Source: Escherichia phage vB_EcoM_ESCO8. From it: 64,000 nucleotides of DNA. Each line of letters begins with the position of its first letter. Positions within the stretch are counted from its first letter, which is position 1. The stretch lies in the sequence record OM386653.1; one strand, written 5' to 3'. A program made the translations under genes and the position numbers. Positions 44,414 to 61,375 of the stretch are shown here, one piece after another. Below the pieces are notes generated by a model. It was given only the letters and a program-made list of their open reading frames with translations. It was not told where the DNA came from and ran no database searches.

Positions 44414-44450
44414 CTATTACTCCTCTTATTAAATCTGGCATCAATACAAG

Positions 44451-44470
44451 AAAACCCGCCGGAGCGGGTT
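44451..44470. terminator. bidirectional terminator (acccgcCGGAgcgggt + T-run)
   Basis: Same hairpin as 17750-17770. Confidence 0.5.
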
Positions 44471-44487
44471 TTTATTTGCTGGCTTAC

Positions 44488-45615
44488 TTAAAACACGCTT
44501 GCCAAAGTTGCACCATTGGTGATAGTTGGTTCCAGAACAATACGGAAAGAATCTTCTGGATCATCACTAAACACAACGATTTTACCGCCTGTAATAAGAT
44601 CTGCTTTCATTTTTGTCGCATTCAATGGAATTCGAGCATCTCCTTCATCATCAAAAACCACGTAAGAGCTATTAGCAAGGGCTTCTTTAGAGTCTGCATC
44701 ACTTGGAGATGACAAGTACACGTCTAGTGTGCACGAGCCACCTAAAAAGATTGCAGGTGTGAAGTTATGCCAACTAGATACCCAGCTAACTTTCTGAAGT
44801 TTCCCATTAATAACAACGCTGCTGATATCCCACTTATTACCACCACCCAAAGAAACGCCCATCATAGAGATGCATTCTTTAAAGGATAAATCAGGGTAGA
44901 AATTAAGTTCTTCTACTATACCTTGGATCACATCAAAGGACAACTCTAAACTTACATCCCAAAGCCTTTGGAAATTATCAAAGTGTGCTTTGTTATCCAG
45001 GTTTTTATCTAAATAGTCAATCATAGTTTCTAGTGAGATTTTATCATAATTAAAATTATAAAACACACGACTAGGACGATTTAGAAAGAATTCAGAGATA
45101 AAGCCACTGTTTTTAGTTAGAATAAACAGTTTATTACCACTGCCAGTACCATCTAACAAAGTGAGAAGTGCTTCTTGATCTTGTTTCTTCTCATACACTT
45201 TATCAAACTCGTCAAAAATAATCACTGCTTTGTCGGTGATCTTGCTAATAAGTTCAATGAAATTAGCATCGCTGTAGGCTTGAGTAACCATAATAGTTGG
45301 AATACCTTCTTCTACAAGGTCACGACTAATGAGTTTGGCTAACATAGTTTTACCACTACCCTTAGTTCCTGTCAGAAGCAATCCTGTATTTTTACCTTGT
45401 GCACTCCGGCGATGGAATGTACGGATAACGTGATTTGCTCGTTTTTCTGTTTCACCATACAGAACATCCGGTACACCTGTCAGATTACCACGGCTTAAAA
45501 AATAATTGCCAAGGGGATCACGACTAACAGTATAGAATCCAGGTGGAAGATAGTTAGATTCCACGCCCATATCTTTATTTACACTTACAATATCACCATA
45601 AATCGTGTATTTCAT
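44488..45615 (-). CDS. AAA-type P-loop ATPase, paralog 1
   Basis: 375 aa; Walker A GTKGSGKT, Walker B IIFDEFD, NRPSR arginine motif; about 45% identical by eye over the ATPase core to 60181..61341. Confidence 0.6.
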   Translation of the reverse strand: MKYTIYGDIVSVNKDMGVESNYLPPGFYTVSRDPLGNYFLSRGNLTGVPDVLYGETEKRANHVIRTFHRRSAQGKNTGLLLTGTKGSGKTMLAKLISRDLVEEGIPTIMVTQAYSDANFIELISKITDKAVIIFDEFDKVYEKKQDQEALLTLLDGTGSGNKLFILTKNSGFISEFFLNRPSRVFYNFNYDKISLETMIDYLDKNLDNKAHFDNFQRLWDVSLELSFDVIQGIVEELNFYPDLSFKECISMMGVSLGGGNKWDISSVVINGKLQKVSWVSSWHNFTPAIFLGGSCTLDVYLSSPSDADSKEALANSSYVVFDDEGDARIPLNATKMKADLITGGKIVVFSDDPEDSFRIVLEPTITNGATLASVF

Positions 45616-45626
45616 TTTAACCCCTT

Positions 45627-46064
45627 TTATTTTTGTTGAGATGAACGAATTAAATCAGCAGCAAATTCAATCAGATACACTTTTGGTGCAATAATGATTT
45701 TTAGCCAATCAAAATTCGAAAAGAAAATAACAAATCCTAAAAAGAAAAAGAAAGCACAGACAACAAGGCCAACAATAGGTAAAGCAGATACTTCACCATA
45801 GCGATCTCGTGACCACAGGCATTCTTTATCTTTAATTGCTTTTACGAGGTTCCGCACAGCAATAAAAGTAATAAACATAAAGCAAATACTAAAAAGTTGC
45901 CATAAACCTGCGGATACTGCTTTCCACACTAATAGTTGATGGATTACTTCTGGAATTTGTTGTTTTCCAAACTCTACAACATCACTCATTGTTTGAATAG
46001 TGACGTTAACCATGTTCAGAAGTACATCCGTTGCTTTATCTGCGATTGCGTTTGTTTTACTCAT
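45627..46064 (-). CDS. membrane protein (145 aa, multiple TM helices)
   Basis: ORF track; hydrophobic segments. Confidence 0.45.
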   Translation of the reverse strand: MSKTNAIADKATDVLLNMVNVTIQTMSDVVEFGKQQIPEVIHQLLVWKAVSAGLWQLFSICFMFITFIAVRNLVKAIKDKECLWSRDRYGEVSALPIVGLVVCAFFFFLGFVIFFSNFDWLKIIIAPKVYLIEFAADLIRSSQQK

Positions 46065-46078
46065 TCTTTATTCCTCAC

Positions 46079-46252
46079 TTACCTTTTAAGGAAACCAATC
46101 ATAATGAAGAACCACATCCAGGCAGGAGAGATAATAAAGCCAAAGAAACCGCAAATAACCGCTTTCTTAATCTCTTCCAGACAACCCACCAGGAAAAGAA
46201 CGAGTGAGACTACAATCCAGATAGCCATAAATACTGTAACAAAGAAACTCAT
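46079..46252 (-). CDS. small membrane protein (57 aa)
   Basis: Not in track; hydrophobic. Confidence 0.3.
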   Translation of the reverse strand: MSFFVTVFMAIWIVVSLVLFLVGCLEEIKKAVICGFFGFIISPAWMWFFIMIGFLKR

Positions 46253-46272
46253 ACCTTTCTCCCGTCTGTATT

Positions 46273-46524
46273 TTAAAATTCAACCACCACTTTATCGAGG
46301 TGCTCTGCTTCAACTTGATCTAATGTTAACACCTCAACTAAACCCTTGTCAATACCTAATTTAATAACATCAACATATTGTCCAAACAGATCCTGGATAG
46401 ATATCTTGTGTTCGACAACAACAACCACTTCATTCCCTTTTGTGAATTCTCTCCATACACGTCCACATTTGAAAATAAAGTCTGCTTCATCTGCTGTTAT
46501 CATTTTAGGTTTGATACTTAACAT
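46273..46524 (-). CDS. hypothetical protein (83 aa)
   Basis: ORF track. Confidence 0.45.
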   Translation of the reverse strand: MLSIKPKMITADEADFIFKCGRVWREFTKGNEVVVVVEHKISIQDLFGQYVDVIKLGIDKGLVEVLTLDQVEAEHLDKVVVEF

Positions 46525-46862
46525 TATAAAACTCCGTACTCTGGTTCAATATTATGCTTACGACAAATGGCATCCCAACGCTCATTACCAAAACTTCTTC
46601 CATGTAGTGCATCGTATGCGAAATGTTCTGCCAACCACATTACTACACCATCTGGTTCAGTGTCAAGCGGAATTCGAAACTCTCGATCATAACGCATACG
46701 GAGAACAAACTCATTACCGTCTTCCAGCAGGTGCATATGACTTTTAGCTCGTGATGCCAAATCGAAGAAAGGAGGTTCATCGTTCCAAACGTGACGCTCA
46801 ACTTCAACACCATGATCAACTACCAAAGTGGCAATTACTTCTCTCATTTCTTTACTAAACAT
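46524..46862 (-). CDS. hypothetical protein (112 aa)
   Basis: ORF track. Confidence 0.5.
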   Translation of the reverse strand: MFSKEMREVIATLVVDHGVEVERHVWNDEPPFFDLASRAKSHMHLLEDGNEFVLRMRYDREFRIPLDTEPDGVVMWLAEHFAYDALHGRSFGNERWDAICRKHNIEPEYGVL

Positions 46863-46960
46863 ATTAAAGCCCTCCTAATTTAATAGTCCACTCAACACCT
46901 GTTAGATAACTTCTTTACACAAGTATACTAAGAACATATAAGTGATTTTACCAGATATGT

Positions 46961-47314
46961 TTAGCTCCACAAATTATGGAAATACTTAGCAAACAAAATA
47001 CGACCTTCTAAACGCTCTTGCCGTTGTTTTTCATTAACTTCTTCAGGTGGAGTTGAATCCTTAAAAGAGGACTCCATTTTTTCAAGAATTTCTAACCAGT
47101 GTTCTGCTGCTCGTTCTTCCATATAAGGTAGATAGTCACCTTTAGCGTGTGGGTACATCCGACGAAGTAACCCGCTAGGAATTTTAACATTGTTTGTGGC
47201 TATCACTTTTGCACGATATGCAGAAAGTGCGTTGTAGATCAGTTTACTTAGTGTCACATCCAGATCAAGAAGATCACTCTCTTCAAATTGAATTTCATCG
47301 TGTACAATTTTCAT
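46961..47314 (-). CDS. hypothetical protein (117 aa)
   Basis: ORF track. Confidence 0.5.
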   Translation of the reverse strand: MKIVHDEIQFEESDLLDLDVTLSKLIYNALSAYRAKVIATNNVKIPSGLLRRMYPHAKGDYLPYMEERAAEHWLEILEKMESSFKDSTPPEEVNEKQRQERLEGRILFAKYFHNLWS

Positions 47315-47325
47315 ATCACTCTCCT

Positions 47326-47616
47326 TTATAGTAAAACACGTTTTGCACTGCTTGGTGCATTGTCGAACATGTTTATCACTTTGTCAAGTTTGTGTATTAA
47401 CTCGTTCGTAATGTTCCACTCTTTGTATGATCTCCATTGTTTCTTATTCTCACCTACCTGGTGTAAAACTTTGATTGGTGCATTCAAACGTACATTGCGT
47501 TCTTTGTCCTCTTCAAAAGAGGCTAACCATTTTTCGTTATGCCCATGAACAGCAATAATAATGCCAAAACCATCAAAAGTTTCTGTAATATTCTTAGTTG
47601 CTAGTGTGATGTTCAT
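47326..47616 (-). CDS. hypothetical protein (96 aa)
   Basis: ORF track. Confidence 0.45.
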   Translation of the reverse strand: MNITLATKNITETFDGFGIIIAVHGHNEKWLASFEEDKERNVRLNAPIKVLHQVGENKKQWRSYKEWNITNELIHKLDKVINMFDNAPSSAKRVLL

Positions 47617-47665
47617 ATCTAACCTCTTTTGTTACGATACCCACAGAGTACCAGAAACTAATTTC

Positions 47666-47693
47666 AAATCAAGTATTGACATACATTTTTATT
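47666..47693 (+). promoter_or_regulatory. sigma70-like promoter (TTGACA-N16-TAAGAT) in divergent intergenic region
   Basis: Same -10 hexamer as several PeSL cassettes; drives the plus-strand block starting at 47735. Confidence 0.45.
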
Positions 47694-47734
47694 TTGTTAA
47701 GATTAGCGCATACCAAATGAAAGGAGAAAAACAA

Positions 47735-47881
47735 ATGCAAAACATCGAACTAACTTCTATCGAAGCTAAAGAAGCAATGAAGGAAGATAGACGTGTTGAA
47801 CATAACCGTTTTTGCGGTGGTGAGTGGTTTGAGATGGAATTCAGATCGGAAGTTTGGCAAGGGAGTGATGGGGGGGTGTAA
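47735..47881 (+). CDS. small protein (48 aa)
   Basis: Track ORF 47561..47881; internal ATG after gaaaggagaaaaacaa RBS. Confidence 0.35.
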   Translation: MQNIELTSIEAKEAMKEDRRVEHNRFCGGEWFEMEFRSEVWQGSDGGV

Positions 47882-47899
47882 TCAAAAAGGAAAGAAGAA

Positions 47900-48046
47900 A
47901 TGATCTACAAAAATAAGTTCACTGGCTGTCTGCGTAAATTTATTGACAAAAAAGGGTATGTTTCTGTTGACAATGGTGTTACGTGGGTGCAAAATGGCAC
48001 TTCAGAACAACTGATCAAGGCTTTACCTTACTATGAGGAGGTTTAA
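47900..48046 (+). CDS. small protein (48 aa)
   Basis: Not in track; aaaaaggaaagaagaa RBS; stop abuts next ATG. Confidence 0.35.
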   Translation: MIYKNKFTGCLRKFIDKKGYVSVDNGVTWVQNGTSEQLIKALPYYEEV

Positions 48047-48370
48047 ATGTCAAACAGTCTGTTTAGCGTGTCAATTGCACCACGTGTCAATATCCGTTGT
48101 CAGTTTGTTACTTTACCTGGTGTAACGCATATCACATTAGAATACGATCCTCGCTCACGAGACAACCCAATCACAGGGAAAATTGATTGTGCTTATGGTG
48201 ATTTTGTTATGGATCACCAAACCATCTTATGCTGTGTGCAACGCTTACAGGCAGGATCTTTATACATCTTTAAGAAAACGGTGTTCCAAGAGATTGCTCA
48301 AGCAGTTGAAAGTGGTATGGAGACTCTTAACGCTATGATTGAAGCAGCCAACAAGAAGGAGGTTTTATGA
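48047..48370 (+). CDS. hypothetical protein (107 aa)
   Basis: ORF track. Confidence 0.45.
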   Translation: MSNSLFSVSIAPRVNIRCQFVTLPGVTHITLEYDPRSRDNPITGKIDCAYGDFVMDHQTILCCVQRLQAGSLYIFKKTVFQEIAQAVESGMETLNAMIEAANKKEVL

Positions 48371-48624
48371 CACTTTATCACGTAACTACAGAAGGCGACT
48401 GTGAAGGCCGCACTACAAAAGATTTGGGGTATGTTGAAGCAGATTCACCTGAACATGCAATTAAGTATCTGCACTCTATTGGTAAGTATGCTTATTATGA
48501 ATATTATATTTATGAGGTTGAGGAAAATCCTATACAAGTAGCAACACCTATGGTAGAGTTGGAACCTCTTAAAGCAAAAGTTAAAACTGGCAGTACATCT
48601 GGATTTAAGGGGGTAGTACAATGA
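48367..48624 (+). CDS. hypothetical protein (85 aa)
   Basis: ORF track. Confidence 0.45.
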   Translation: MTLYHVTTEGDCEGRTTKDLGYVEADSPEHAIKYLHSIGKYAYYEYYIYEVEENPIQVATPMVELEPLKAKVKTGSTSGFKGVVQ

Positions 48625-48890
48625 AAATTCGTGATAATATTGCAGACTACATTGTAACTTGTGAAGATGGTACAGATGTTTTGCTCCCGCAACCAATTGT
48701 TTGGGAGGATGGTGAAATGTACCGTGTAGCTACGGAACATTGTAAAGGTATTGACATTAAAGCTCTTTGTGCTATGCTTGTCGAAGATCAAGAATCTGAT
48801 CTCTCAGTTGTAACATACCAAGATGTGTATGAAATCTGTGAAACTTTACTACAAATGCATGAAGATGGACAAGAGGTATTTCCAAAATGA
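48621..48890 (+). CDS. hypothetical protein (89 aa)
   Basis: ORF track. Confidence 0.45.
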   Translation: MKIRDNIADYIVTCEDGTDVLLPQPIVWEDGEMYRVATEHCKGIDIKALCAMLVEDQESDLSVVTYQDVYEICETLLQMHEDGQEVFPK

Positions 48891-49087
48891 CAGAATGGGT
48901 AAAAGTAGAAGATCCATACGATATCCCACTAGGTGAGTATGTGGTGGTAATGGAAGATGGTGAAAAAGGGTATTGTGAAGTGCATAAAAGTATGTCTGGT
49001 AAGATTATTGTGGTGAACCATCATTTTCACTTTGATTACCCTCCTATTGTGGCATATATGCCTTTACCTAAATATGAAGGGGATTAA
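48887..49087 (+). CDS. hypothetical protein (66 aa)
   Basis: ORF track. Confidence 0.4.
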   Translation: MTEWVKVEDPYDIPLGEYVVVMEDGEKGYCEVHKSMSGKIIVVNHHFHFDYPPIVAYMPLPKYEGD

Positions 49088-49234
49088 ATGTTATTCTTTA
49101 GACTTAATATTGCTTTTTGTTTGTTTGCAAACATTGCATTCTGGGTATTGGGTAGTGTAAAATTAGGCTACTTCTTTATTGTACTACAAGCTATTTGTTT
49201 AGCTGGTCAAATAATCACTAAGGGGCGAGTATGA
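49088..49234 (+). CDS. small membrane peptide (48 aa)
   Basis: Not in track; ATGA overlap with next gene. Confidence 0.35.
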   Translation: MLFFRLNIAFCLFANIAFWVLGSVKLGYFFIVLQAICLAGQIITKGRV

Positions 49235-49659
49235 CACAACAAATCCAAGATAAATTTAATGAACTCTATCCAGCAAGCGAAAGCGGCACTCATAACGTGC
49301 GTAAATCGCTCTATAACGTCTTTAAAGCAGGATGGGAGGCTTGCCTTCAGGCTCAAGAAAAACCAGCGTTAGGGACGCGTAACGGCTTTTATATCCCGAT
49401 TGTTGAAAGCGAGGAAGGATGGGGTAGCAAATATGATGGCTATATGGTAGGATTCACCATAGAAGATCTTGAAGAACGCCGTAAAGTCTTTGAGGCAGCT
49501 AATACAGAAAAGTATGGCTACTATTATGAACGACCTATTCGTTACACTCCTGTTGTGCTTAGTCCTAAAGCTGTTGAAACAATGTCTGCAACAGAAAAAG
49601 AAAGGACTCGCCATTGTGTATGGTTTGATGATATTGACGATTTTCGATTTGGAGAATAA
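49231..49659 (+). CDS. hypothetical protein (142 aa)
   Basis: ORF track; aaggggcgag RBS. Confidence 0.5.
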   Translation: MTQQIQDKFNELYPASESGTHNVRKSLYNVFKAGWEACLQAQEKPALGTRNGFYIPIVESEEGWGSKYDGYMVGFTIEDLEERRKVFEAANTEKYGYYYERPIRYTPVVLSPKAVETMSATEKERTRHCVWFDDIDDFRFGE

Positions 49660-49662
49660 TTT

Positions 49663-49935
49663 ATGAAAAATAAACACCCTTACTATCAACTATTGCATGT
49701 ACTGCGCCGATTGCGCAATAAGCAGATTGAAGATTTCCGTCACTTCAAGCGTGATCGTGTGAATCGTCAATGGATGGATCATCGTTTCTTCTCTTTAACT
49801 GTACGTAAGTTCCGTGAAGAGATTAAGAAGACAGACCAGGTAATTGCAGGTGCTAAACGTGCAATCTCTATGTCAAAAATCACAGGTGTAAATCATATGT
49901 ACGACTTCAAAACAGACTCTGTTGTACCTATGTAA
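49663..49935 (+). CDS. hypothetical basic protein (90 aa)
   Basis: ORF track. Confidence 0.45.
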   Translation: MKNKHPYYQLLHVLRRLRNKQIEDFRHFKRDRVNRQWMDHRFFSLTVRKFREEIKKTDQVIAGAKRAISMSKITGVNHMYDFKTDSVVPM

Positions 49936-49967
49936 AAGTATTTTGTAAAGTTTTGTGGAGAGTATTG

Positions 49968-50022
49968 ACTTTTTCAGAAAAACATGCTACCCTAAACCTG
50001 AAAGGTGACGAGCGAAGCGAGT
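49968..50022 (+). repeat. conserved ~55 nt element, copy B
   Basis: aaaaacatgctaccctaa and downstream gagcgaagcgag...attctc shared with 21325-21379; followed by 7-bp dyad 50043-50071 and RBS of 50100 CDS. Confidence 0.4.
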
Positions 50023-50099
50023 TAGTATTCTCTATAGATATTGTTCCTGTCACTCATGGAGGGGCAGGAACAGAGTATATTACTGTATAGGAGAATACT

Positions 50100-50366
50100 A
50101 TGGATGTTACTACACTAAGGTTTATACTTCTCTTCTTACTTATAGTTATAGGATTAATTGTTATACCCTATCTATATGTCTACATGTTATCTCGTAAGTA
50201 TGGTTATGATCGTATACCATTTTACTATTTAATACCTGTCTTAGTTATCTATCTATTTCTCTTTTGTAGATATTGTCCTGAACTAGTTCCTGAACACTGG
50301 AAGTTAGAACCTGTTGAAGTTTACCATTGTGAATGGAAGACAGAGTACAGATCTAACAGTAATTAG
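50100..50366 (+). CDS. membrane protein (88 aa, 2 TM helices)
   Basis: ORF track; aggagaatact RBS. Confidence 0.45.
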   Translation: MDVTTLRFILLFLLIVIGLIVIPYLYVYMLSRKYGYDRIPFYYLIPVLVIYLFLFCRYCPELVPEHWKLEPVEVYHCEWKTEYRSNSN

Positions 50367-50426
50367 TTATTGACTCTACCTACTAAATAATCTAGATTCT
50401 ATGTAAAATTTACTAAGGAGACTACT

Positions 50427-50591
50427 ATGCAAAACATTTCTATCACTAAAACAAAAAGATCTGTACCTAAACTTACTCACTCTACCTACCCTGTTATCAT
50501 CCGAAAAGGAAAAGAATGGATTAAAGATGATCATGGTGGTTATGTAGAAGTGTCAAAGCTGAAAGAAGCAGAAGTTAACTTTGTACGCTAA
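50427..50591 (+). CDS. small basic protein (54 aa)
   Basis: Not in track; taaggagactact RBS. Confidence 0.4.
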   Translation: MQNISITKTKRSVPKLTHSTYPVIIRKGKEWIKDDHGGYVEVSKLKEAEVNFVR

Positions 50592-50601
50592 GGAGTAGAT
50601 T

Positions 50602-50883
50602 ATGACTGAAGAGTTTAAGCAATGGTTTGATAAAAACTTTCTACCCCATCTGTGGCCTAATGAAGAAGAACGTCAAGAGATGATGATCTACACTTGGCTT
50701 GCCTGGCGGGATGGCATCCGTAGCAAAGAAGCACAGGAAGAGGAACCTATTGCTTACATCTTTAAACATCCGGCAGGTAAGTTGTTTTGGGCTTTAACAG
50801 ACGAAAGTAATAAAGATCACCATGATGTTATTCCTGTGTATGCCAAGAACAATGTGAAGGATCAATCAGATGACAATGTATAG
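50602..50883 (+). CDS. hypothetical protein (93 aa)
   Basis: ORF track; aaggag RBS. Confidence 0.45.
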   Translation: MTEEFKQWFDKNFLPHLWPNEEERQEMMIYTWLAWRDGIRSKEAQEEEPIAYIFKHPAGKLFWALTDESNKDHHDVIPVYAKNNVKDQSDDNV

Positions 50884-51352
50884 CATATGGGGTAGAATGG
50901 GTGAAGACCATGACTACTATTGCTTGAAAAGTAACGTTGAACAGGTAGATGTTGATCAAATTATAAAGCACTACCTGAAAACATGGCGTGAGGTGGAGTT
51001 TAGAGAGTTCGCTATCCTCCATAGTCAAGAAGGAGAAAAGGAGATAGACATGAGTACACTAACTAAAGCAGTACAAACGCATAAAGAATATGAGGAAGCA
51101 GTTAAAGATGAAGTAAACCCTACTTCACTGACCTTCGAAAACCTTACCCCTTTGTTTTGGTCATATGATGGTAATGAAATCCTTACACATCATACACCAG
51201 AGGCTGTTAAAAATTGGGAAGGCTGTTGTAATTCCTATGAGGTACGGTATGTTGTAGAAGAAGATGATACGTACATTATGTTCCGCATAGATAACGGTTG
51301 TGGTGATCAATGGGATATTGTTCTTTCTAAACATTTGCAATTGGGTGGTTAA
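50870..51352 (+). CDS. hypothetical protein (160 aa)
   Basis: ORF track. Confidence 0.5.
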   Translation: MTMYSIWGRMGEDHDYYCLKSNVEQVDVDQIIKHYLKTWREVEFREFAILHSQEGEKEIDMSTLTKAVQTHKEYEEAVKDEVNPTSLTFENLTPLFWSYDGNEILTHHTPEAVKNWEGCCNSYEVRYVVEEDDTYIMFRIDNGCGDQWDIVLSKHLQLGG

Positions 51353-51353
51353 A

Positions 51354-51716
51354 ATGCTAAAGTACCTGATGATTACTTGGTTATGTTTACTTTCATTTGC
51401 TGGACATGCAACAGAAGGTTTTAAACTTGGTGCTGACGGTACTAAATTCTTTACATATTGGGGTGGGAAAGCCTTATACCAAGAAGAAAAGAATAGCATA
51501 GAATGTACGGTTAGTAAGAAGATTAAATCAGTAGATCAATATGGGGATGCCTATACTGGTGTAGGTTTTAACTGTGGAAAAGATTTATTTCTATTTGTTA
51601 AAAAGTATTTAGATGTTAACCTTGTATTGCTTATTGTTGTAGATCCTGCTAAGTTTGAAGAGCGTAAAGCATATCGTGCAGATATGTTCCTAGAATATGA
51701 TGATAAGGAGAAATAA
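51354..51716 (+). CDS. putative secreted protein (signal-peptide-like N-terminus)
   Basis: Track ORF 51300..51716; start at MLKYLMITWLCLLSFAGHA. Confidence 0.45.
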   Translation: MLKYLMITWLCLLSFAGHATEGFKLGADGTKFFTYWGGKALYQEEKNSIECTVSKKIKSVDQYGDAYTGVGFNCGKDLFLFVKKYLDVNLVLLIVVDPAKFEERKAYRADMFLEYDDKEK

Positions 51717-52067
51717 ATGCTTGATGTAACTATTAATGGTGTTAAATATATTCCTTACGTAGAGAAAAGCAATCCTGATGCCCTGGATGTTATGTTTGAG
51801 GATTCAGATCTTGGTACTGTCACTGTACGGGAATATTTCCGACAACTACTCTCTACGTTATGGAGAGAAGAAGAGTGTTTTAATGGTAAACGTCCATTTG
51901 GTAACTCATGCTGGCAATTTGATATGATCCGCGCCTTAATTGAGGCAGGGTATATTGAAGGTACAGTTGTGTACGATGAAGATGGATATCCAGAAGAGAC
52001 TGACTACGACAGTAAAGAAGCTAATAAATTTATACAGGGCTTGATTGCACAGATGTGTTTGGGTTAA
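51717..52067 (+). CDS. hypothetical protein (116 aa)
   Basis: ORF track; aaggagaaataa RBS. Confidence 0.45.
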   Translation: MLDVTINGVKYIPYVEKSNPDALDVMFEDSDLGTVTVREYFRQLLSTLWREEECFNGKRPFGNSCWQFDMIRALIEAGYIEGTVVYDEDGYPEETDYDSKEANKFIQGLIAQMCLG

Positions 52068-52068
52068 T

Positions 52069-52798: not shown

Positions 52799-52819
52799 CA
52801 AACCAATAAGGAAAATATA

Positions 52820-53335: not shown

Positions 53336-53343
53336 GGGGAAAT

Positions 53344-53820
53344 ATGTCTAAACGTTTTGGTCGTAATCAAAAAAGAAAGTTAAGTGCTCAACTAGCAACT
53401 TTGCAAAAAGAGGTTAACACTTTACAAAAAAGTGTTTGTGAACTTAAGGAACAAAACCAACTTGAAAAAGAGTGTATCCAGCTTACACAGGAAGTTATTG
53501 GTGAGTATTTTCCTTCACTAGTTCCTAAGAAGGTGGCTCTTAGGGAAAATCTACCTTTTACTTTATCCTTAATGCAAGCAAATGATAGATTCCAAACTGA
53601 AACTGATGATTTGATGTTTGCAATGCATCAATTACATGGTTTAGAATATACAGCACAAGTGGATAAACTTCGTAACATGTTATATGTGCGGGTAGAAACA
53701 CCTAAAGGTGAGACAGTAGCTTTTAATTATAATTTCCAACAGCTACCTGATCATATTATTGAACAAATTTTAAAACGAGATTTTGTTCCTATGCTTGTTA
53801 AACAAATTAAGAGAGGTTGA
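53344..53820 (+). CDS. hypothetical protein (158 aa), basic N-terminus, coiled-coil-like
   Basis: ORF track. Confidence 0.45.
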   Translation: MSKRFGRNQKRKLSAQLATLQKEVNTLQKSVCELKEQNQLEKECIQLTQEVIGEYFPSLVPKKVALRENLPFTLSLMQANDRFQTETDDLMFAMHQLHGLEYTAQVDKLRNMLYVRVETPKGETVAFNYNFQQLPDHIIEQILKRDFVPMLVKQIKRG

Positions 53821-53821
53821 A

Positions 53822-55558
53822 ATGGCTAAGAAAGAGTTGAGCTTCACTCCAACAGAAGAGCAAACAGCTATTAAGGAGGCTTTTCCAGACCATCGCTTTT
53901 TAACTATCCAAGCTAAATCTGGATCAGGCAAAACGTCAACACTTTATTTGCTGGCTAACAGTACAGAAGATCGCATTCTTTACTTAGCTTTCAATAAAAG
54001 CATGGCAGAAGAAGCACGACGTAAGATGCCACTAAATGTAGAATGCCGTACATTGCATTCTATTTGCTATCAATTCCTGGATCATCGTTTACGTGCAAAA
54101 CTGTCACGACCAGAAGGACAGTATGTTAACGTTGCAGGTACAGGTAGCGAGATAGCAAAGAAATTTAAGATTAATAATCTTATTGATAAACGAGGGAAAA
54201 CACTTTTAACTCGTGCTATGATCGGTTTAATGATCAAGCAAACCGTAGGTAAGTTTGAATTTTCGGATGATCCTTTTATCAGCCGTAAACATTTTCCTAG
54301 TGTACATCTTGCAGATATTAAAAGAAAAGGTATTAACGAACACAAACTAATTACAGAAGTAGTTAAGTATGCAAAACAACTGTGGCGAGAGCGCATCGAT
54401 CCTAACACAGATACTTTGATGACGCATGACACCTATGTAAAATTGTTTGAATTGTCTGGTGCTGATCTTGGTTATGATATTATTTTTGGTGATGAATTCC
54501 AGGATGTTAACCCTGCATTCTTGTCTATTCTGCGAAATGCTAAATCTGCAAAACAAGTAGTAGTGGTGGGTGACGAATATCAGAGCATCTACCAGTTCCG
54601 TGGAAGCCAAAATATGATGAAGGAAACCTCTACATATGGGGCAGAGCTTCCATTAACTGCTTGCTTCCGTTTTGGCCCCAAAGTGGCAAACATTGCCAAT
54701 ATGATTTTAAGCGATAAAGAACCTTTGCGTCATCCTTTGGTTGGTAAAGGCTTTGATACTGTAGTAGGTAGCTACAAATCAGATGTTGTAGACTATACAA
54801 AACCTTACACTATCATCTTTCGCAAGAATTTAACCTTGCTTATGGAGGCAATGGATCGTATTGCAGATGGGGAAGAAATTATTATTAACGTAGATACCAG
54901 AGATTTTATCTCTATGGTAGATAGTGTTAATGCTCTTCGGAGAGGAGATATTGAGAAAGTAAAACATGAAACTGTATTACCTTACGCAGACTGGAATGAA
55001 TTTGTTGAGTGTGCAGAGGCTGATCCAGATGCTAAACGCTTGTTAAACATCGTAGTTTCTGGTAAGGCGAACACTATAGCACATACACTTAGAACGCATA
55101 GAAATTCTCCTACAGCAAAAGTCACACTGACTACAGCACACAAGTCTAAAGGTTTGGAGTGGGATCAGGTTATTGTTGCTAATGATTTTCCTTCCAACTA
55201 TGATAAAAAGACTGGTGAATGGATAGGACTGGAAGAGGCAGAGCGAAACCTACTGTATGTAGCGCATACCCGTTGTGTTAAATGCTTACAATGGAACACA
55301 ACCGTACAGGAGATTATAGATATCAACCGTGTTGCAACAGAGAAAGTACCAACAAGCACCACTTTACCGATCAATGGTATTAAACTTGGTGTATTTGGCG
55401 CTGGCACATCTCGAAAAGCTGTAGAAAAATTTGTTGCAGATTCTTTTGATGGTAACTATAATCATGCACAAGCATATGAGAGTTGGTTAGAGGAAGGTGA
55501 AGGTGATTTTTTAGGTGAAATAAATCTTTTACCAGATATAAATAAACTGGTAAACTAA
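53822..55558 (+). CDS. SF1 UvrD/Rep-type DNA helicase
   Basis: Track ORF from 53783; ATG at 53822 after agagaggttgaa RBS. Walker A AKSGSGKTSTL, motif II GDEFQD, motif III VGDEYQSIYQFRG, C-terminal TAHKSKGLEWD. Confidence 0.75.
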   Translation: MAKKELSFTPTEEQTAIKEAFPDHRFLTIQAKSGSGKTSTLYLLANSTEDRILYLAFNKSMAEEARRKMPLNVECRTLHSICYQFLDHRLRAKLSRPEGQYVNVAGTGSEIAKKFKINNLIDKRGKTLLTRAMIGLMIKQTVGKFEFSDDPFISRKHFPSVHLADIKRKGINEHKLITEVVKYAKQLWRERIDPNTDTLMTHDTYVKLFELSGADLGYDIIFGDEFQDVNPAFLSILRNAKSAKQVVVVGDEYQSIYQFRGSQNMMKETSTYGAELPLTACFRFGPKVANIANMILSDKEPLRHPLVGKGFDTVVGSYKSDVVDYTKPYTIIFRKNLTLLMEAMDRIADGEEIIINVDTRDFISMVDSVNALRRGDIEKVKHETVLPYADWNEFVECAEADPDAKRLLNIVVSGKANTIAHTLRTHRNSPTAKVTLTTAHKSKGLEWDQVIVANDFPSNYDKKTGEWIGLEEAERNLLYVAHTRCVKCLQWNTTVQEIIDINRVATEKVPTSTTLPINGIKLGVFGAGTSRKAVEKFVADSFDGNYNHAQAYESWLEEGEGDFLGEINLLPDINKLVN

Positions 55559-55568
55559 GGGGGTTAAA

Positions 55569-55820
55569 GTGGCAGGGTATCATTTGAAGGAGATTAGCAA
55601 AGAGGAATATGGTTCTATTGCTAAAATTCAAGAAGAGCTTTATGAACTTCAGGATGCTATTGATCAAGATTGCAAGCTGATGCAACTTATTGAGTTATCA
55701 GATATTGTAGGCGCTGTTGAAGGTGTTCTTGAACAGCATTTTCCTGATATGACGCTTCAAGATTTGATCACTATGTCGAACATTACTAAACGTGCATTCC
55801 GCAATGGAGGTCGCTCATGA
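55569..55820 (+). CDS. MazG-like nucleotide pyrophosphohydrolase domain protein, tentative
   Basis: 83 aa; EELYELQDAI...ELSDIVG resembles the MazG EExxEL...E(L)xD helical signature. Confidence 0.4.
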   Translation: MAGYHLKEISKEEYGSIAKIQEELYELQDAIDQDCKLMQLIELSDIVGAVEGVLEQHFPDMTLQDLITMSNITKRAFRNGGRS

Positions 55821-56389
55821 ATGTTGAAGTAATAGCCCAAGCTATTGATTACTATGGTCGGTTTGCACAAATGTTGGAAGTTCCATATCTCGTGGATGCT
55901 GATATACTGGTGTACACACTACCAGAAAATAAAGAGGATCGCCCATTAGGGCATCCTAACGGTAAATACTATGTAGCCAGTGCAGAACAATCTTTCCTGC
56001 AAATGGAGAAGGATGGTTTTGAATTTGCAGCAGGTAATCCTTATATGGCACTAACACCATGTTACCGTACAGAAGAAAATTTAGATGATACTCATTTCAA
56101 TATTTTCTTGAAATTGGAGTTGATTGAGTTCTATCCTGATGCTACAATTGAAGAGTATGCTAACTCTATGCGCTGTTTCTTCTCTACTTACTATGGAGTT
56201 AAAACATATTTAGTACCCACTAATATTGGGGTTGACGTAGAGGATGAATATGGTTTAGAATTAGGTTCATTCGGTATGAGGGAGTCTCCAAAAGGTCATC
56301 CTTATATCTATGCAACAGGTATTGCGGAGCCTAGGGCTTCACTGGCAATAAACCGTGTTGTAAATAAGATTCAAAGCATTAGCAAATAA
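55817..56389 (+). CDS. hypothetical protein with class II aminoacyl-tRNA-synthetase-like motif 2, weak
   Basis: 190 aa; CYRTEENLDDTHFNIFLKLEL resembles class II motif 2 (fRxE...H..F...E); GSFGMRE is a possible motif-3 analogue. Fold assignment uncertain. Confidence 0.3.
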   Translation: MNVEVIAQAIDYYGRFAQMLEVPYLVDADILVYTLPENKEDRPLGHPNGKYYVASAEQSFLQMEKDGFEFAAGNPYMALTPCYRTEENLDDTHFNIFLKLELIEFYPDATIEEYANSMRCFFSTYYGVKTYLVPTNIGVDVEDEYGLELGSFGMRESPKGHPYIYATGIAEPRASLAINRVVNKIQSISK

Positions 56390-56401
56390 GAGGAGAATAG
56401 A

Positions 56402-56836
56402 ATGTCTATTGTGACACAAATGAAAGCAGATCGTATCTTAGCACGTACAACCGATAAGGGTGCTTTTGCTTTGTTAACTAATATTATTGGTGAGTTTGAC
56501 CTTGCTCGTACTCAAAAGGCAAATCTAAATAAATCAGAAGACGATATTATGATTAACATTGTTAAGATTGGTATTGCACACGCTAAAGAGGAGCTAGACT
56601 CACTTAAGAAAGTTAATGCTTCCCTTAGCAAATGTGAGCGAGCTATGCGTGATATCACCACTCTGGAAAAATATTTACCAGAAATGCTATCTGAAGATGA
56701 CCTTCGAGCGATTGCTGAAGAATTTGCCTTGACAGGCAAGAAAATGCCAGATATGATGAAACACCTTAAAGCAGAGTATCCGAATCAATATGATGGAAAA
56801 CTTGCTTCTACCATTGCAAAAGAAATTTTAAACTAA
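56402..56836 (+). CDS. GatB/YqeY-domain protein
   Basis: 144 aa; YLPEMLSEDDLRAIAEEFALTGKKMPDMMKHLKAEYP...KLASTIAKEIL parallels YqeY YLPEQLSEEE...DMGKVMG...KVK...LV. Confidence 0.5.
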   Translation: MSIVTQMKADRILARTTDKGAFALLTNIIGEFDLARTQKANLNKSEDDIMINIVKIGIAHAKEELDSLKKVNASLSKCERAMRDITTLEKYLPEMLSEDDLRAIAEEFALTGKKMPDMMKHLKAEYPNQYDGKLASTIAKEILN

Positions 56837-56853
56837 TTTAGAAGGAGAACATA

Positions 56854-57804
56854 ATGATTGCATTTTACGCTAATAAACTGGAAGTTAAAAAAGCAGCAGA
56901 AGAGATGGGTATCCTGCATATTCTTAACGAAGCAATTCACAAAAGTTTTGGTTACACGTCTGAAGCAGAAATCAATGATCTGATTCACAGTGTTAATGAC
57001 TTGTTCTTCTACCCTAACTTTCTACAGCAATTAGATGGTTGTGGATTTGAATATATGGAGCTTCATCCTGAATATACATTTATGGAAGTAACACCTGAAG
57101 GTTTTCTGGAGATTATTCGTACTGAATATCTTGCTAAAGAGGATAAAGAAAAAGATATGGCTGAAAAAGTACAACTGACTGTGCATAATACGTGTTTCCT
57201 GGATACTGAGGCCACGGAAGAAAATATTAATTACTTGCTTTCCGTTTGTAATCCTCATTGTCCACAACCACATTGGAAAAATGCAGATCATTATCTAATG
57301 TATTCAACTGAAGAAAACATTACTTTCTTCGATGAAAATAGTGGTATTAATGGTGCACATAAGAATTCTCCATATAGGAAAGATCGGTTTGTAGTTGATG
57401 TAAAAACATTTACTAAACTGTTTGAGGAGTATTATTCAAAAAATGAAAGTAAGACTGAATCTTCACCAAAACCACGTTTTCGCCGACCGCGTAAACCTGT
57501 GCCTACTCGTTCTGTAAGTTATGTTCGTATCATTTACACTACGCAGCAGGTATATACTCTTAAGAACGTAAGTACCCTTTCTGTACAAGAAGATGTAATT
57601 AATATTGTGCGTAATAATGTTATTACAGAGGGTATTGAGGAAAAGATTATGTCTGTTATCGATCCTAAACTTGTTATGGCAATCATTATTAATGAACCAA
57701 AAGGTGTAACAACATTGTTCCGAAATATTCATGGCACTTGGGAAACTCAAGTTGACGGTTTGACTTCTGATGGTTGTACACGTATTACCAAAAACCTTGA
57801 CTAA
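56854..57804 (+). CDS. hypothetical protein (316 aa)
   Basis: ORF track; aaggagaacataATG. Confidence 0.5.
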   Translation: MIAFYANKLEVKKAAEEMGILHILNEAIHKSFGYTSEAEINDLIHSVNDLFFYPNFLQQLDGCGFEYMELHPEYTFMEVTPEGFLEIIRTEYLAKEDKEKDMAEKVQLTVHNTCFLDTEATEENINYLLSVCNPHCPQPHWKNADHYLMYSTEENITFFDENSGINGAHKNSPYRKDRFVVDVKTFTKLFEEYYSKNESKTESSPKPRFRRPRKPVPTRSVSYVRIIYTTQQVYTLKNVSTLSVQEDVINIVRNNVITEGIEEKIMSVIDPKLVMAIIINEPKGVTTLFRNIHGTWETQVDGLTSDGCTRITKNLD

Positions 57805-57851
57805 GATCAAGGACAATCTTACGAAAAAGATTTAAAATAAAGATCCACCCT

Positions 57852-57880
57852 AAAGCCAGCTTAATGCTGGCTTTTATTTT
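57852..57880 (+). terminator. rho-independent terminator (aagccagcTTAATgctggctt + T-run)
   Basis: Hairpin after 56854..57804 stop; argues that the nrdD start is at 57894, not 57864. Confidence 0.55.
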
Positions 57881-57893
57881 CCACGGAGGATTA

Positions 57894-59693
57894 ATGACCC
57901 AAAAACTATATGAGGATGTAATCGGATTCCTCGAACAAACATCCGAAGAATTTACTCGTGAAAATGCAAACAAACCTGCAATGATTGTTAATACTCACCG
58001 AGACTTACTAGCAGGTATCCTAAGCAAGCACATGGCAATGACCCATATTTTACCGGAAGATCTGGCAGAATGGCATAAAAGTGGGTATGGTCACATTCAC
58101 GATTTAGATTATTTACTCTCACCTTTAACTAATTGTTGCCTGGTAAATTACCAAGATATGCTTGAGAACGGTTTCCGTATTGGTAATGCACATATTGAAA
58201 AACCAAAATCTATCGGTGTAGCGACTACTGTCCTAACTCAAATTATTCAAGCAGTAGCTTCTAGCCAATATGGTGGACAAACTTGTGCACATGTTGATAC
58301 TGGGCTTAGTCAATACGTTAAAGCAAGTTTTAATAAAATATATGCCGATGTTGGCGATTATGATATTGCTATGCGTATGGTAGATAAACAGGTCTATGAT
58401 GCAATGCAAACTTTAATCTACCAGGTGAACACTCTAATGAGTGTAAATGGTCAGTCACCTTTTATAACAATTAGTTTAGGTTTGGATACCTCTGCTTTTG
58501 GTAGAATGATCACTAAAAACTACCTAATGGTGCACAAACAAGGATTGGGAAAAGATAGGGTAACTCCTGTGTTTCCTAAAGTTATCTTCTTCTTGGAAGA
58601 TGGTGTTAACATGAAAGCTGGCGATCCAAATTATGATTTGAAGCAACTGGCAATGGAGTGTTGTGCTGAACGCATTTATCCTGATTTTATCTCTGTACCT
58701 TTAAACAAAGAAGTTACAGGATCTTCAGATGGTCGCGTCACAAGCATGGGTTGCCGTAGCTTCTTGTCATACTATGCAACAGAGCAAGGTGAAAAATATG
58801 ATGGTCGTTTCAACTTAGGCGTAGTTTCTTTAAACTTACCTATCATTGCAGCAGAGTCCCGTGAAAAGGGCATCTTATTTACTGAACTGTTGGAACAACA
58901 TATGGAGATGGCGTATAAGGCACATATGCTACGTGTTAACCGTATTAGACATACCAAAGCATCTCAAAACCCTACATTGTTTATGGAAGGGGCTTTAGCT
59001 CGACTAGAAGCTAATGAAGAGATTGGTAAGCTATTTGAAGGTGGTTATGCCTCTATTAGTATCGGTTATGTAGGTTTAGCAGAAGCTATGGAGATTTTAT
59101 ACCCAGGTAACACCAATCCAAAAGCAATGGGTAAAAACATCCTTCAATATATGAAGGATATCTGTGGCACATTTAAAGAACGTTCTGGTTTAGCTTTTAG
59201 TTTGTATGGAACACCAGCAGAATCCTTGTGCTATAAATTTGCCAAAGCATTAAATGATCGCTATCCTGGTTCTATTGATCGTGACTACTTGACAAACTCT
59301 TTCCATCAACCTGTGTGGATGCACACTACCCCGTTCCAAAAGTGGGATTATGAGGAAGGTTTTGCACAAATCAGTAATGGTGGGAACATAGGCTATGTAG
59401 AAACACCAAACCTTAAAAATAACTTGCAAGCACTGGAAACCCTTGTAGATTATGCCTACAACAAAATTCCTTATTTTGGCGTGAACCAACCTGTAGATCA
59501 GTGTTTCAAATGTGGTTTTCATGGTGAATTTAAGGCAACAGCTAAAGGCTTCGAGTGTCCAAGTTGTGGCAATCATGAGGAAGAATCTATATCTGTAATC
59601 AGAAGAGTGTCAGGATACCTGTCTGCCCCTAACTCTCGCCCTTATAATAAAGGTAAAATGCAAGAGGTATTAGAAAGGGAGAAACATTTTTGA
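57894..59693 (+). CDS. nrdD: anaerobic ribonucleoside-triphosphate reductase
   Basis: About 599 aa; C-terminal zinc ribbon CFKCGFHGEF...CPSCGN followed by glycyl-radical-like RRVSGYL; followed by nrdG. Confidence 0.85.
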   Translation: MTQKLYEDVIGFLEQTSEEFTRENANKPAMIVNTHRDLLAGILSKHMAMTHILPEDLAEWHKSGYGHIHDLDYLLSPLTNCCLVNYQDMLENGFRIGNAHIEKPKSIGVATTVLTQIIQAVASSQYGGQTCAHVDTGLSQYVKASFNKIYADVGDYDIAMRMVDKQVYDAMQTLIYQVNTLMSVNGQSPFITISLGLDTSAFGRMITKNYLMVHKQGLGKDRVTPVFPKVIFFLEDGVNMKAGDPNYDLKQLAMECCAERIYPDFISVPLNKEVTGSSDGRVTSMGCRSFLSYYATEQGEKYDGRFNLGVVSLNLPIIAAESREKGILFTELLEQHMEMAYKAHMLRVNRIRHTKASQNPTLFMEGALARLEANEEIGKLFEGGYASISIGYVGLAEAMEILYPGNTNPKAMGKNILQYMKDICGTFKERSGLAFSLYGTPAESLCYKFAKALNDRYPGSIDRDYLTNSFHQPVWMHTTPFQKWDYEEGFAQISNGGNIGYVETPNLKNNLQALETLVDYAYNKIPYFGVNQPVDQCFKCGFHGEFKATAKGFECPSCGNHEEESISVIRRVSGYLSAPNSRPYNKGKMQEVLEREKHF

Positions 59694-60160
59694 ATTACGC
59701 CGGATATGAACCTGTTGACATGCTCAACGGTGATGGTGTAAGATGCTCTTTGTGGGTGAGCGGTTGTAGCCACGGTTGCCGTGGCTGCTTTAACCAGAAA
59801 GCCTGGTCGTATAACTACGGACAAGAGTTCACTACTGAAACATTAGATCTTATCTTGAAAGATTTATCTCGACCTTTCATTAAAGGATTAACAGTTTTAG
59901 GTGGTGAACCTCTTGACAAAGAGAACATTGACACTGTAGAGTATGTTCTTGAGAAGGTAAGAGATTGTTTTGGAAACAAAAAAGATATTGTCTTATATAC
60001 AGGATATCTTTTTGAAGAAATTCCAGAGAAAATTAAAAAACTGGTTGACATAGTAATAGATGGTAAGTATGATATGACTCAACCAACAACGAAACGTTAT
60101 AGAGGTTCAGATAATCAACGAATGTGGGTTAAGAAAGACAACATTTGGGAATCTGACTAA
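59690..60160 (+). CDS. nrdG: anaerobic RNR activating protein (radical SAM)
   Basis: 156 aa; CSHGCRGC (Cx3Cx2C) radical-SAM cluster motif near N-terminus; directly downstream of nrdD. Confidence 0.85.
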   Translation: MNYAGYEPVDMLNGDGVRCSLWVSGCSHGCRGCFNQKAWSYNYGQEFTTETLDLILKDLSRPFIKGLTVLGGEPLDKENIDTVEYVLEKVRDCFGNKKDIVLYTGYLFEEIPEKIKKLVDIVIDGKYDMTQPTTKRYRGSDNQRMWVKKDNIWESD

Positions 60161-60180
60161 ATTAAATAGAGGAGAAAACT

Positions 60181-61341
60181 ATGTTTACAGTATTCGGCAA
60201 TCAAATCTTCCTGCGTCAGAAGTCTGGTACAGATATTGAAGAAATTCCAGCAGGAACTTTTGGTGTAGGTGTTACTCAAAGTGGCGAGTTCTTCCTGTAT
60301 CCTAAAAACGATATGGAAGTCCCTTCAGTAACATACGGTGATACTGATGATAAATCAGAACGTATTATCAAGACGTTCCTTAGCCGCAAAGGTAAAAACA
60401 CAGGTGTTCTCCTTGAGGGTACGAAGGGTAGCGGTAAAACTTTGCAAGCTAAAATGCTGTCTTCTGCTCTTCGTGAAATGGGTATTCCTACTATTTCTAT
60501 CGGTAGTGCTTTTAATGGTGAAGGCTTTATCAATTTTATGTCTAAAATCACACAACCTGTGATGATTATGATCGATGAATTTGATAAACTGTATGCTGAA
60601 AAAGATGCACAGGATGGTTTGCTTACCCTGCTGGATGGTGTTGGTGGCTATGACAAGCTGTTTGTATTGACTAAAAATGATGGTTATGTATCAGAATTTT
60701 TGCGTAATCGCCCTAGCCGTATTTTCTACAGCTTTAACTATAAGAAACTACCTAAAGCTACTATGGATGATTATCTGGCTAAAAATCTGGAGAACAAAGC
60801 CTTTTTACCAGATTTTGAAACGCTTTATAATCTGTCCGTGGACTTGAACTTTGATATTGTTCAGTCATTAGTAGAAGAACTTAACCGTTACCCTAATGAC
60901 AAATTCTCTGATGCACTTGCATTAATGGGTATCAGTATTACTGAACACCGCTATGCTGCAAAAGAAGTTAAACTTCTGAAAGTTAACGGTGTAGATCGTA
61001 CAGGAGATGTTTCGGCAGATACCGATATTGACGGTATGACAGCACAGGGTTTGTTTAGCGGTAATCGTTATGTTGTAGCTGTAGACCATAAGCTAGGAGA
61101 AGAGCATCTTCCTGAAATGGAAGGAGTCGTTACCGTAGAAGATAAAGACGAAGAAGGTGACTACTACTGGGGTGTAGACCGTATCTTGCTGACGTATGAT
61201 GAAAAACACATCCGTACAATGGGCGGTGACGGTTATCACTTTATGTTCACCGATGATAAAGGTAACAACATTGAAGTTGTTATTAAAAACAAAGAACGTA
61301 AAAACTACACAGAGTATGTGTTTGGTGGTCGTTCTTACTAA
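60181..61341 (+). CDS. AAA-type P-loop ATPase, paralog 2
   Basis: 386 aa; Walker A GTKGSGKT, Walker B IMIDEFD, NRPSR; paralog of 44488..45615. Confidence 0.6.
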   Translation: MFTVFGNQIFLRQKSGTDIEEIPAGTFGVGVTQSGEFFLYPKNDMEVPSVTYGDTDDKSERIIKTFLSRKGKNTGVLLEGTKGSGKTLQAKMLSSALREMGIPTISIGSAFNGEGFINFMSKITQPVMIMIDEFDKLYAEKDAQDGLLTLLDGVGGYDKLFVLTKNDGYVSEFLRNRPSRIFYSFNYKKLPKATMDDYLAKNLENKAFLPDFETLYNLSVDLNFDIVQSLVEELNRYPNDKFSDALALMGISITEHRYAAKEVKLLKVNGVDRTGDVSADTDIDGMTAQGLFSGNRYVVAVDHKLGEEHLPEMEGVVTVEDKDEEGDYYWGVDRILLTYDEKHIRTMGGDGYHFMFTDDKGNNIEVVIKNKERKNYTEYVFGGRSY

Positions 61342-61347
61342 GTGATA

Positions 61348-61372
61348 AAAGGAGGCGAAAGCCTCCTTTATT
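61348..61372 (+). terminator. rho-independent terminator (ggaggcGAAAgcctcc + ttta ttt)
   Basis: Hairpin after ATPase stop. Confidence 0.5.
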
Positions 61373-61375
61373 TGT

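Follow-up and report, generated by a model that had tools for sequence, protein, structure and literature searches.

Two genes lying on opposite strands of a 64,000-nucleotide (nt) stretch of Escherichia phage vB_EcoM_ESCO8 DNA (OM386653.1; in the following, "the window" denotes this whole stretch) encode paralogous AAA+ ATPases, designated A and B. Both are anciently diverged members of the phage protein family PHROG 2376, predicted, in an explanation held as probable overall (rough probability 0.6), to form rings and to remodel proteins; they reside in a loosely ADP-ribose-related gene neighbourhood and play no role in inversion of the DNA between them. The two open reading frames (ORFs) were found exactly at the coordinates and on the strands given in the original prediction, which was made from the sequence alone; the proposed inverted orientation and spacing of ~15 kb also held (opposite strands, measured ~14.6 kb), and Pfam confirmed the neighbours it had named, i.e. 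a NADAR/nuclease pair beside A and a HAD/phosphoribosyltransferase/macro trio after B. Positions 44000-62000 are 99.4 % identical over their full length to Escherichia phage outra, and 55 records display at least 95 % identity to this segment (megablast). All that are listed or annotated among them belong to Justusliebigvirus, a genus of phi92-like coliphages within the subfamily Stephanstirmvirinae, the group to which the window is assigned by sequence. The pair itself is ordinary: both ATPase genes and their paralogy are already visible in dozens of public phi92-like genomes.

44488-45615, minus strand: AAA+ ATPase paralog A, 375 amino acids (aa), made up of a beta domain at the N-terminus (aa 1-45), the AAA module (aa 56-255) and a variable C-terminal domain (C-domain) rich in beta structure (aa 256-375; nt 44491-44850)
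60181-61341, plus strand: AAA+ ATPase paralog B, 386 aa; three-domain layout as in A; apparently inserted in a lineage-specific manner, with nrdG before it and the HAD/PRTase/macro genes after it

Both proteins matched the profile phrog_2376 end to end (A, aa 1-367 on profile positions 1-357 of 363, E 6.6e-108; B, aa 1-376, E 3.6e-104) and scored above the Pfam gathering cutoff for PF00004 (AAA). Judged by this profile-based classification, a check proposed in the original prediction, A and B belong to PHROG 2376, a family of classical AAA+ ATPases that is specific to phages and consists of three-domain proteins, and carry all sequence-level features that define it and the classical AAA+ clade. 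Relatives were detected by tblastn at 423 places in 360 phage records, ranging from Stephanstirmvirinae and Herelleviridae via GAP32-like jumbo phages and 7-11-like phages to Aeromonas and Acinetobacter phages; the presence of two copies in one genome is unusual. In A, Walker A (GTKGSGKT) occupies aa 83-90 and Walker B reads IIFDEFD. Residues G83, G86, G88, K89, D135, E136, the sensor-1 asparagine N169 as well as R180 and R183 are invariant in an alignment of 134 family sequences. The NRPSR motif aligns with the RPGR arginine-finger motif of p97 in matches to PDB sequences, the best of which are p97/Cdc48 D2 modules. A pore-loop-1 signature is located in the beta2-alpha2 loop, with F, Y or W at position 114 in 115 and G116 in 90 of the 134 sequences.

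The AlphaFold models (AF2, monomers; pLDDT 92.3 for A and 89.4 for B) display an identical succession of elements: a five-strand N-terminal beta domain (aa 1-45), the AAA alpha/beta module with lid (~56-255) and a beta-rich C-domain with a short terminal helix. Foldseek against BFVD revealed full-length matches to this three-domain architecture in Erwinia, Salmonella SE131, Agrobacterium Atu_ph07, Proteus, Lactobacillus and crAss-like phages, followed only thereafter by BCS1-like proteins of giant viruses. Solved structures closest in fold include Bcs1, bacterial Trip13 (second-best structural match) and NSF-D2. With classical remodellers (Bcs1, Pch2/TRIP13 including the Trip13 of CBASS, NSF-D2, p97/Cdc48 and the FtsH module) the phage ATPases have in common Walker A and B, the sensor-1 asparagine, a second region of homology (SRH) with two arginine fingers, a pore loop 1 of the form aromatic-x-Gly and a lid of alpha-helices; they differ in overall sequence (13-18 % identity), a shorter stretch between Walker A and Walker B and a C-terminal beta domain of their own. 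A profile derived from C-domains of clades A and M368 (the latter comprising 368-aa proteins), searched against 1.84 billion representatives, retrieved the family itself, one fragment and weak matches to a few long multi-stretch proteins, and thus no informative homolog. PADLOC identified no known defence protein, yielding only marginal P-loop matches at E 1e-3 or weaker.

Relatives of both ORFs are annotated as "ATPase (x2)", "putative ATPase or Zn metalloprotease", "FtsH-like protease" or "hypothetical protein". The AAA module is indeed distantly FtsH- and p97-like; a protease assignment was rejected, however, as neither Peptidase_M41 (Pfam) nor an HExxH motif nor a hydrophobic, membrane-spanning segment was detected in the phage proteins. 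From their sequences, the protease label in the GenBank relatives is considered an unfounded annotation artefact.

A and B share 120 identical residues over 254 positions (47 %; 70 % positives, E 2e-82, aa 1-254; BLASTP). Because the alignment spans the N-terminal domain and the entire AAA module, the two are true paralogs rather than proteins with merely a P-loop in common: all core motifs quoted in the original prediction were recovered, and similarity extends well beyond the Walker motifs. Its statement that the proteins are clearly diverged elsewhere applies to the last ~120 aa, which BLAST left unaligned, though they are distantly homologous by profile. Comparison of clade profile alignments with hhalign related the two C-domains at a probability of 70.7 % (E 3.8e-5, 101 columns), and the M368 clade links them (92 % and 95.5 %). 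By these alignments, A and B are homologous end to end, with a C-domain that is evolving fast.

The split between the paralogs is ancient. Core identity between A and B (48 %) equals that of either protein to its GAP32-like jumbo-phage homologs (46-48 %), and the clades of A, B, M368 and the GAP32-like proteins lie at roughly equal distances from one another (46-57 %). In a neighbour-joining tree of the core (200 bootstraps), A, B and M368 were each monophyletic with support of 1.0, B grouped with M368 at 0.845, and an exclusive A+B clade never formed (0.0); phylogeny was a check proposed in the original prediction. The tree grouping excludes such a clade, and the distance between A and B matches that of both to the jumbo-phage proteins; B therefore did not arise by recent duplication of A but represents an ancient branch of the family, whose insertion or retention is confined to a part of the subfamily. 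Phapecoctavirus genomes (phAPEC8, Schickermooser and others) contain a single family copy per record, the ortholog of A (72 % identity, tblastn). Their nrdG is followed by two unrelated small to medium-sized ORFs and then by the HAD and PRTase_3 genes, B being absent from this position by locus inspection and tblastn. Among the records listed, those of Justusliebigvirus carry two copies per genome, as do related Klebsiella phages such as KP13-26 and FKP3. A third genomic position of the family within related phages is represented by L008 (L008:7586-8389 and 9001-10107; Logan SRR10882646 contig, 154 kb), where an M368-clade ATPase is encoded upstream of the UvrD helicase, with which it shares the strand; a weak macro-like ORF (phmmer 7e-9, no Pfam match) is located ~600 nt upstream of this ATPase.

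Inverted paralogs had also been proposed to act as substrates for homologous inversion of the intervening 45.6-60.2 kb segment, an idea for which the orientation of two homologous genes was the sole argument. At the DNA level, A and B are only 57 % identical (432/756 positions of the aligned 5' two-thirds) with a longest common exact run of 16 nt, and a repeat search of the window reported no inverted repeat between the two genes. Related phages were probed with a flank segment (NADAR plus endonuclease, 42689-44487) and an interior segment (helicase to NrdD, 53783-59693): in all ~50 genomes listed in both searches the probes lie on one strand in the expected order, i.e. 0 of ~50 are inverted. 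The layout is conserved even in Phapecoctavirus, which itself lacks B. The inversion idea is refuted, its remaining probability being negligible, and the opposite orientation of A and B has no recombinational role. It results from the presence of two divergently transcribed gene blocks, a leftward one ending in A and a rightward one containing B, which meet at ~47.6-48.0 kb:

47617-48046, no strand: divergent intergenic/promoter region (ORF map; GC-skew sign change at ~48 kb; promoter-like sites on both strands)

The immediate surroundings of A and B comprise the following features:

42689-43240, minus strand: NADAR protein, 183 aa (PF08719 at 2.3e-36)
43241-44413, minus strand: CapR + T5orf172 endonuclease-like gene (CapR 2.9e-43, weak T5orf172; Pfam), between A and the NADAR gene
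44451-44472, minus strand: terminator-like hairpin, 9-bp stem with 5 G-C pairs, starting 16 nt past the stop of A, between A and the endonuclease-like gene/NADAR
60045-60073, plus strand: putative sigma-70-like promoter, TTGACA-17-TATGAT (11/12), ~108 nt upstream of B and still inside nrdG, at its 3' end
61348-61369, plus strand: terminator-like hairpin, 9-bp stem with 5 G-C pairs, starting 7 nt past the stop of B
61731-62405, plus strand: HAD-superfamily hydrolase (PF00702; HAD family IA, NCBIfam), first of the trio downstream of B
62398-63255, plus strand: PRTase_3, ComF-like phosphoribosyltransferase (PF15610 at 1.1e-41)
63131-63964, plus strand: macro-domain protein (PF01661 at 1.6e-6), longest ORF; annotated start in relatives ~100 nt later

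The NADAR protein of the window is identical to its ortholog in Bas61 (EmilieFrey) at 182 of 183 positions (99 %). NADAR of Bas60/61/62 is reported to reverse the guanine ADP-ribosylation by DarT1; when expressed alone (ectopically), it was shown to neutralise DarT1 and to restore phage growth against DarTG1 (bioRxiv 10.1101/2024.07.11.602962). The endonuclease-like gene separating NADAR from A measures 978 nt in EmilieFrey, 1173 nt in the window and in PHB05, and 1461 nt in Schickermooser; because of this variable length among relatives, its sequence suggests a mobile insert of the homing-endonuclease type. An annotated terminator is found in Schickermooser at the site matching the hairpin behind A. 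With its own promoter-like site and terminator-like hairpin, B looks like a self-contained cassette.

The closest NCBIfam model of the macro protein is the macro domain of the DarG antitoxin (NF048014, 1.4e-12, under the curated cutoff). In relatives, the HAD/PRTase_3/macro genes head a cluster encoding TerC, TelA, vWA-TerF and TerD. A phosphoribosyltransferase together with a HAD protein constitutes the "nucleoside-like metabolite" branch of Ter systems, which PMC7824862 describes for phages, and the succession of HAD and PRTase_3 followed by TerC/TelA/vWA-TerF/TerD in the relatives matches the Ter module of Anantharaman, Iyer & Aravind (2012), as cited there. The DarG-like macro protein, in contrast, is not among the Ter components listed in PMC7824862, and B falls outside the module in Phapecoctavirus, which possesses the HAD/PRTase_3/macro genes without B.

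The notion that each ATPase borders an "ADP-ribose-linked gene set" stood only in part. Within the window it is weak: the terminator-like hairpins following both ATPases, the variable endonuclease insert, the NADAR protein acting alone and the trio occurring without B argue against a tight functional unit. A dependence of the partner enzymes on the ATPases was likewise contradicted by the sufficiency of NADAR and the retention of the trio in genomes devoid of B. In other phages, however, such genes do recur beside family members.

This recurrence was assessed for 80 ATPase loci from IMG/VR (8-kb flanks, ORFs clustered), which contained homologs of the window macro protein (17 loci), NadV (Nampt; 14 loci) and bifunctional NadM-Nudix (10 loci). 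A recurring order on one strand is NadM-Nudix, macro, NadV and ATPase; in a sub-lineage devoid of NadV, the macro gene directly precedes the ATPase gene. Scanning from NadV, the ATPase was present in 48 of 79 loci and located within 400 nt downstream in 34 of the 70 having room, with the scan yielding close NadV relatives only (76-100 % identity) and therefore no unbiased sample of NadV-bearing phages. These NadV-linked loci constitute one broad lineage, the ATPases of which are mutually 45-76 % identical. The array resembles NARP2-type modules (NadV plus NadM-Nudix, often with macro), directly downstream of whose NadV the distant ATPases are encoded; by contrast, the published versions of such pathways, as described, need no ATPase, and the ATPase gene has a promoter-like signal of its own.

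The spacer between NadV and ATPase genes of environmental phages (73-94 nt) contains a GC-rich hairpin overlapping a near-consensus promoter (TTGACA/TAGACA-N17-TATAAT):

L019:7856-7928, L045:4410-4486, L066:7849-7925, L102:9402-9475, L118:5280-5358, L156:8195-8267, L165:8637-8713: NadV-ATPase spacer sites

Because of this hairpin and promoter match, the ATPase gene probably starts a transcription unit of its own in the NadV loci, which implies an independently transcribed, possibly shuffled, early cassette. The spacer resembles the "promoter-early stem-loop" cassettes of T4-type phages.

Further co-localisation was observed in the Acinetobacter jumbo phage ME3, where a NADAR gene (Pfam 6.5e-39) abuts the start of an ATPase gene (product ~31 % identical to the window copies) that is directly followed by a Nudix gene. 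The array (L089:9432-12952) continues with a 481-aa DUF2828/DUF7788 protein, to which a 498-aa "RNA-binding protein" encoded ~1.5 kb past the ATPase of Aeromonas phage LAh_8 might correspond in kind. In the 7-11-like phages SE131 and 7-11, a NARP1-like pair of PRPP-synthetase-like and Nampt-like genes lies 3-4 kb downstream of the ATPase gene, and B-type ATPases with 74 % identity (L014, L016) are again encoded ahead of HAD/PRTase/macro genes. Homologs thus do co-localise with ADP-ribose-related genes in other genomes. Across all collected loci, iterative NADAR and Nudix searches retrieved NADAR only from A-type Stephanstirmvirinae loci and from ME3, and no NAD+/ADP-ribose neighbour was found at the ATPase loci of GAP32, Tr1, LAh_8, P577 and Thurquoise.

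After dereplication at 62 % identity to 32 lineages, the four nearest genes (Pfam) included NAPRTase (2), NUDIX (1), PRTase_3 (1), HAD_PNKP (3), RNA ligase (2) and cREC (1), and hence no dominant partner. RNA-repair genes were as frequent as NAD+ genes in the vicinity of the ATPase (PNKP phosphatase 3, T4-type RNA ligase 2, cREC 1; 32 loci among L010-L088). With divergent macro proteins included, ~6-7 of the 32 lineages have a NAD+/ADP-ribose neighbour and ~25 have none; the corresponding binomial p is ~0.01-0.04 at an assumed background of 8 % and not significant at 12 %. Such genes are common in any case, NADAR occurring in over 48 % and NadV in 22-33 % of phages of medium and jumbo size (PMC9503650). 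The gene neighbourhoods are therefore suggestive of a loose, recurring and non-obligate association with NAD+/ADP-ribose metabolism, in which a functional tie is possible.

A closer relationship would make the ATPases functional partners of a phage counter-defence toolkit directed at NAD+ and ADP-ribose: alongside NADAR, macro, Nudix and NAD+-salvage enzymes, the motors could, for instance, pull out or unfold ADP-ribosyltransferase toxins or NADase effectors of the host, or make modified DNA or protein accessible, with the C-domain recognizing the host effector. The conserved order of macro, NadV and NadM-Nudix genes, the direct succession of NadV and ATPase, the ME3 adjacency, the NARP1-like pairs of SE131 and 7-11 and the B-type loci L014 and L016 agree with this, as does the structural similarity to Trip13, a remodeller in a bacterial immune system. 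The small share of lineages involved, its dependence on the assumed background, the general abundance of these genes in large phages, the derivation of the NadV-linked loci from one broad lineage in which the ATPase has its own hairpin and promoter, and the five phages devoid of such neighbours speak against it. Moreover, the NADAR ortholog counters DarT1 without an ATPase, Phapecoctavirus keeps the trio without B, and no AAA+ partner is mentioned in the systematic survey of NAD-ADPr in viruses (PMC9503650). Taken together, a partnership of this kind is considered unlikely. Even less credence is given to its most elaborate version, according to which PHROG 2376 would comprise target-swappable counter-defence motors that dismantle DarT-type toxins or Sir2/TIR NADase assemblies, leaving repair of the damage to NADAR, macro, Nudix and NAD+-salvage enzymes, with A paired to the anti-DarT1 NADAR and B to the DarG-like macro protein as two target specificities. 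The resemblance to the phage NADAR anti-DarT1 factor itself lies in the near-identical NADAR of the window and in the ME3 ATPase placed between NADAR and Nudix; that factor works without an ATPase, and most members of the ATPase family lack such neighbours.

Two further functions suggested by remote similarity fit the proteins less well. Replication accessory ATPases in the style of clamp loaders or DnaC-like helicase loaders are hinted at by weak PHROG matches (clamp loader 1.2e-8, DnaC-like loaders 1e-6), a weak NCBIfam match to Hda, the position of the P577 gene after primase/helicase and DNA polymerase, the location of B behind nrdD/nrdG and an RNase H neighbour in 10 of 80 loci. The loader matches (1e-8 to 1e-6), however, are limited to the P-loop core and weaker than those to the classical clade (PF00004, p97/FtsH, Bcs1, Trip13, NSF), and an SRH with two invariant arginines along with an aromatic pore loop is typical of protein translocases, not of loaders; the label was rejected and a loader function appears quite improbable. 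Still a little less probable is a role as BCS1-like chaperones or translocases in membrane-proximal virion assembly. "BCS1 orthologs" with a proposed role of this type were reported from jumbo phages by Iyer et al. (2021) and may correspond to the PHROG 2376 family. Strict BCS1 membership was rejected, since no BCS1-specific N-terminal domain with membrane anchor precedes the AAA module: there is no BCS1_N match in Pfam and no hydrophobic segment (maximum 13/19 hydrophobic residues). In addition, the genes are situated among early and metabolic genes rather than in morphogenesis modules.

The favoured explanation of A and B as ring-forming protein remodellers of PHROG 2376 envisages that each of them forms a ring, probably hexameric, in which ATP powers the pulling or remodelling of a protein substrate through the aromatic pore loop. 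The variable C-domain would pick the target, so that A and B may act on different ones. Within the subfamily, A would be the ancestral copy, and it would close a leftward operon of the early type. The B cassette would have entered the lineage of Justusliebigvirus and the Klebsiella phages by insertion at a site flanked by nrdG and the HAD/PRTase/macro genes of Ter type. Adjacency to NADAR and to HAD/PRTase/macro would then reflect a tendency of the family toward counter-defence, repair and auxiliary-metabolism islands, without obligate enzyme partnership. Three points weigh against this explanation. Literature searches, including the work on Bas61, retrieved no function, experiment or paper on this ATPase family, so that oligomeric state, substrate and preference for protein over nucleic acid are inferred. 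The promoter and terminator calls are consensus matches only, with counts not above those in shuffled sequence. The recurrent siting next to NAD+/ADP-ribose genes (34/70 NadV loci; NADAR-ATPase-Nudix in ME3) may mean more than a loose link.

Worth keeping is above all the family as such, an AAA+ motor that is widespread among large phages and well defined in structure and for which literature searches found no function, with a C-domain diverging far faster than its core and repeated siting by genes for NAD+ salvage and removal of ADP-ribose. These genes are now recognised as counter-defence factors. The association represents a modest, testable lead: if the link turned out to be functional, phage evasion of ADP-ribosylation or NAD+-depletion immunity would gain an energy-dependent step of protein remodelling. 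If not, the result still corrects the widespread annotation as FtsH-like protease or Zn metalloprotease.

Several observations concern the genes between A and B and their relatives. The UvrD-type helicase gene (53783-55558) harbours an intein in some relatives (ZYD, PaulScherrer, JohannJBalmer) and measures 2775 nt in PHB05, and the NrdD gene (57864-59693) is interrupted in several relatives (2-3 alignment pieces, split NrdD annotations); the window copies of both are free of insertions. An ORF of 316 aa upstream of nrdD (56854-57804), for which the Pfam search retrieved no match at E 0.01 or better, is annotated as "ribonucleotide reductase" in RefSeq relatives and comprises 1386 nt in Schickermooser. 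Two small genes (55817-56389 and 56402-56836) are annotated as seryl- or histidyl-tRNA synthetase and as tRNA amidotransferase, respectively. Pfam yielded no match for the former and assigned the latter to YqeY/GatB-like domain proteins; a similar "amidotransferase subunit B" gene is located ~6 kb upstream of the ATPase gene of ME3. Finally, the unannotated ~146.4-kb records MG065639, MG065645, MG065656 and MG065689 ("Campylobacter phage" A150, A145, C3 and A110a, respectively) are ~98 % identical to E. coli Justusliebigvirus in the helicase-NrdD region, which renders their "Campylobacter" host label doubtful.

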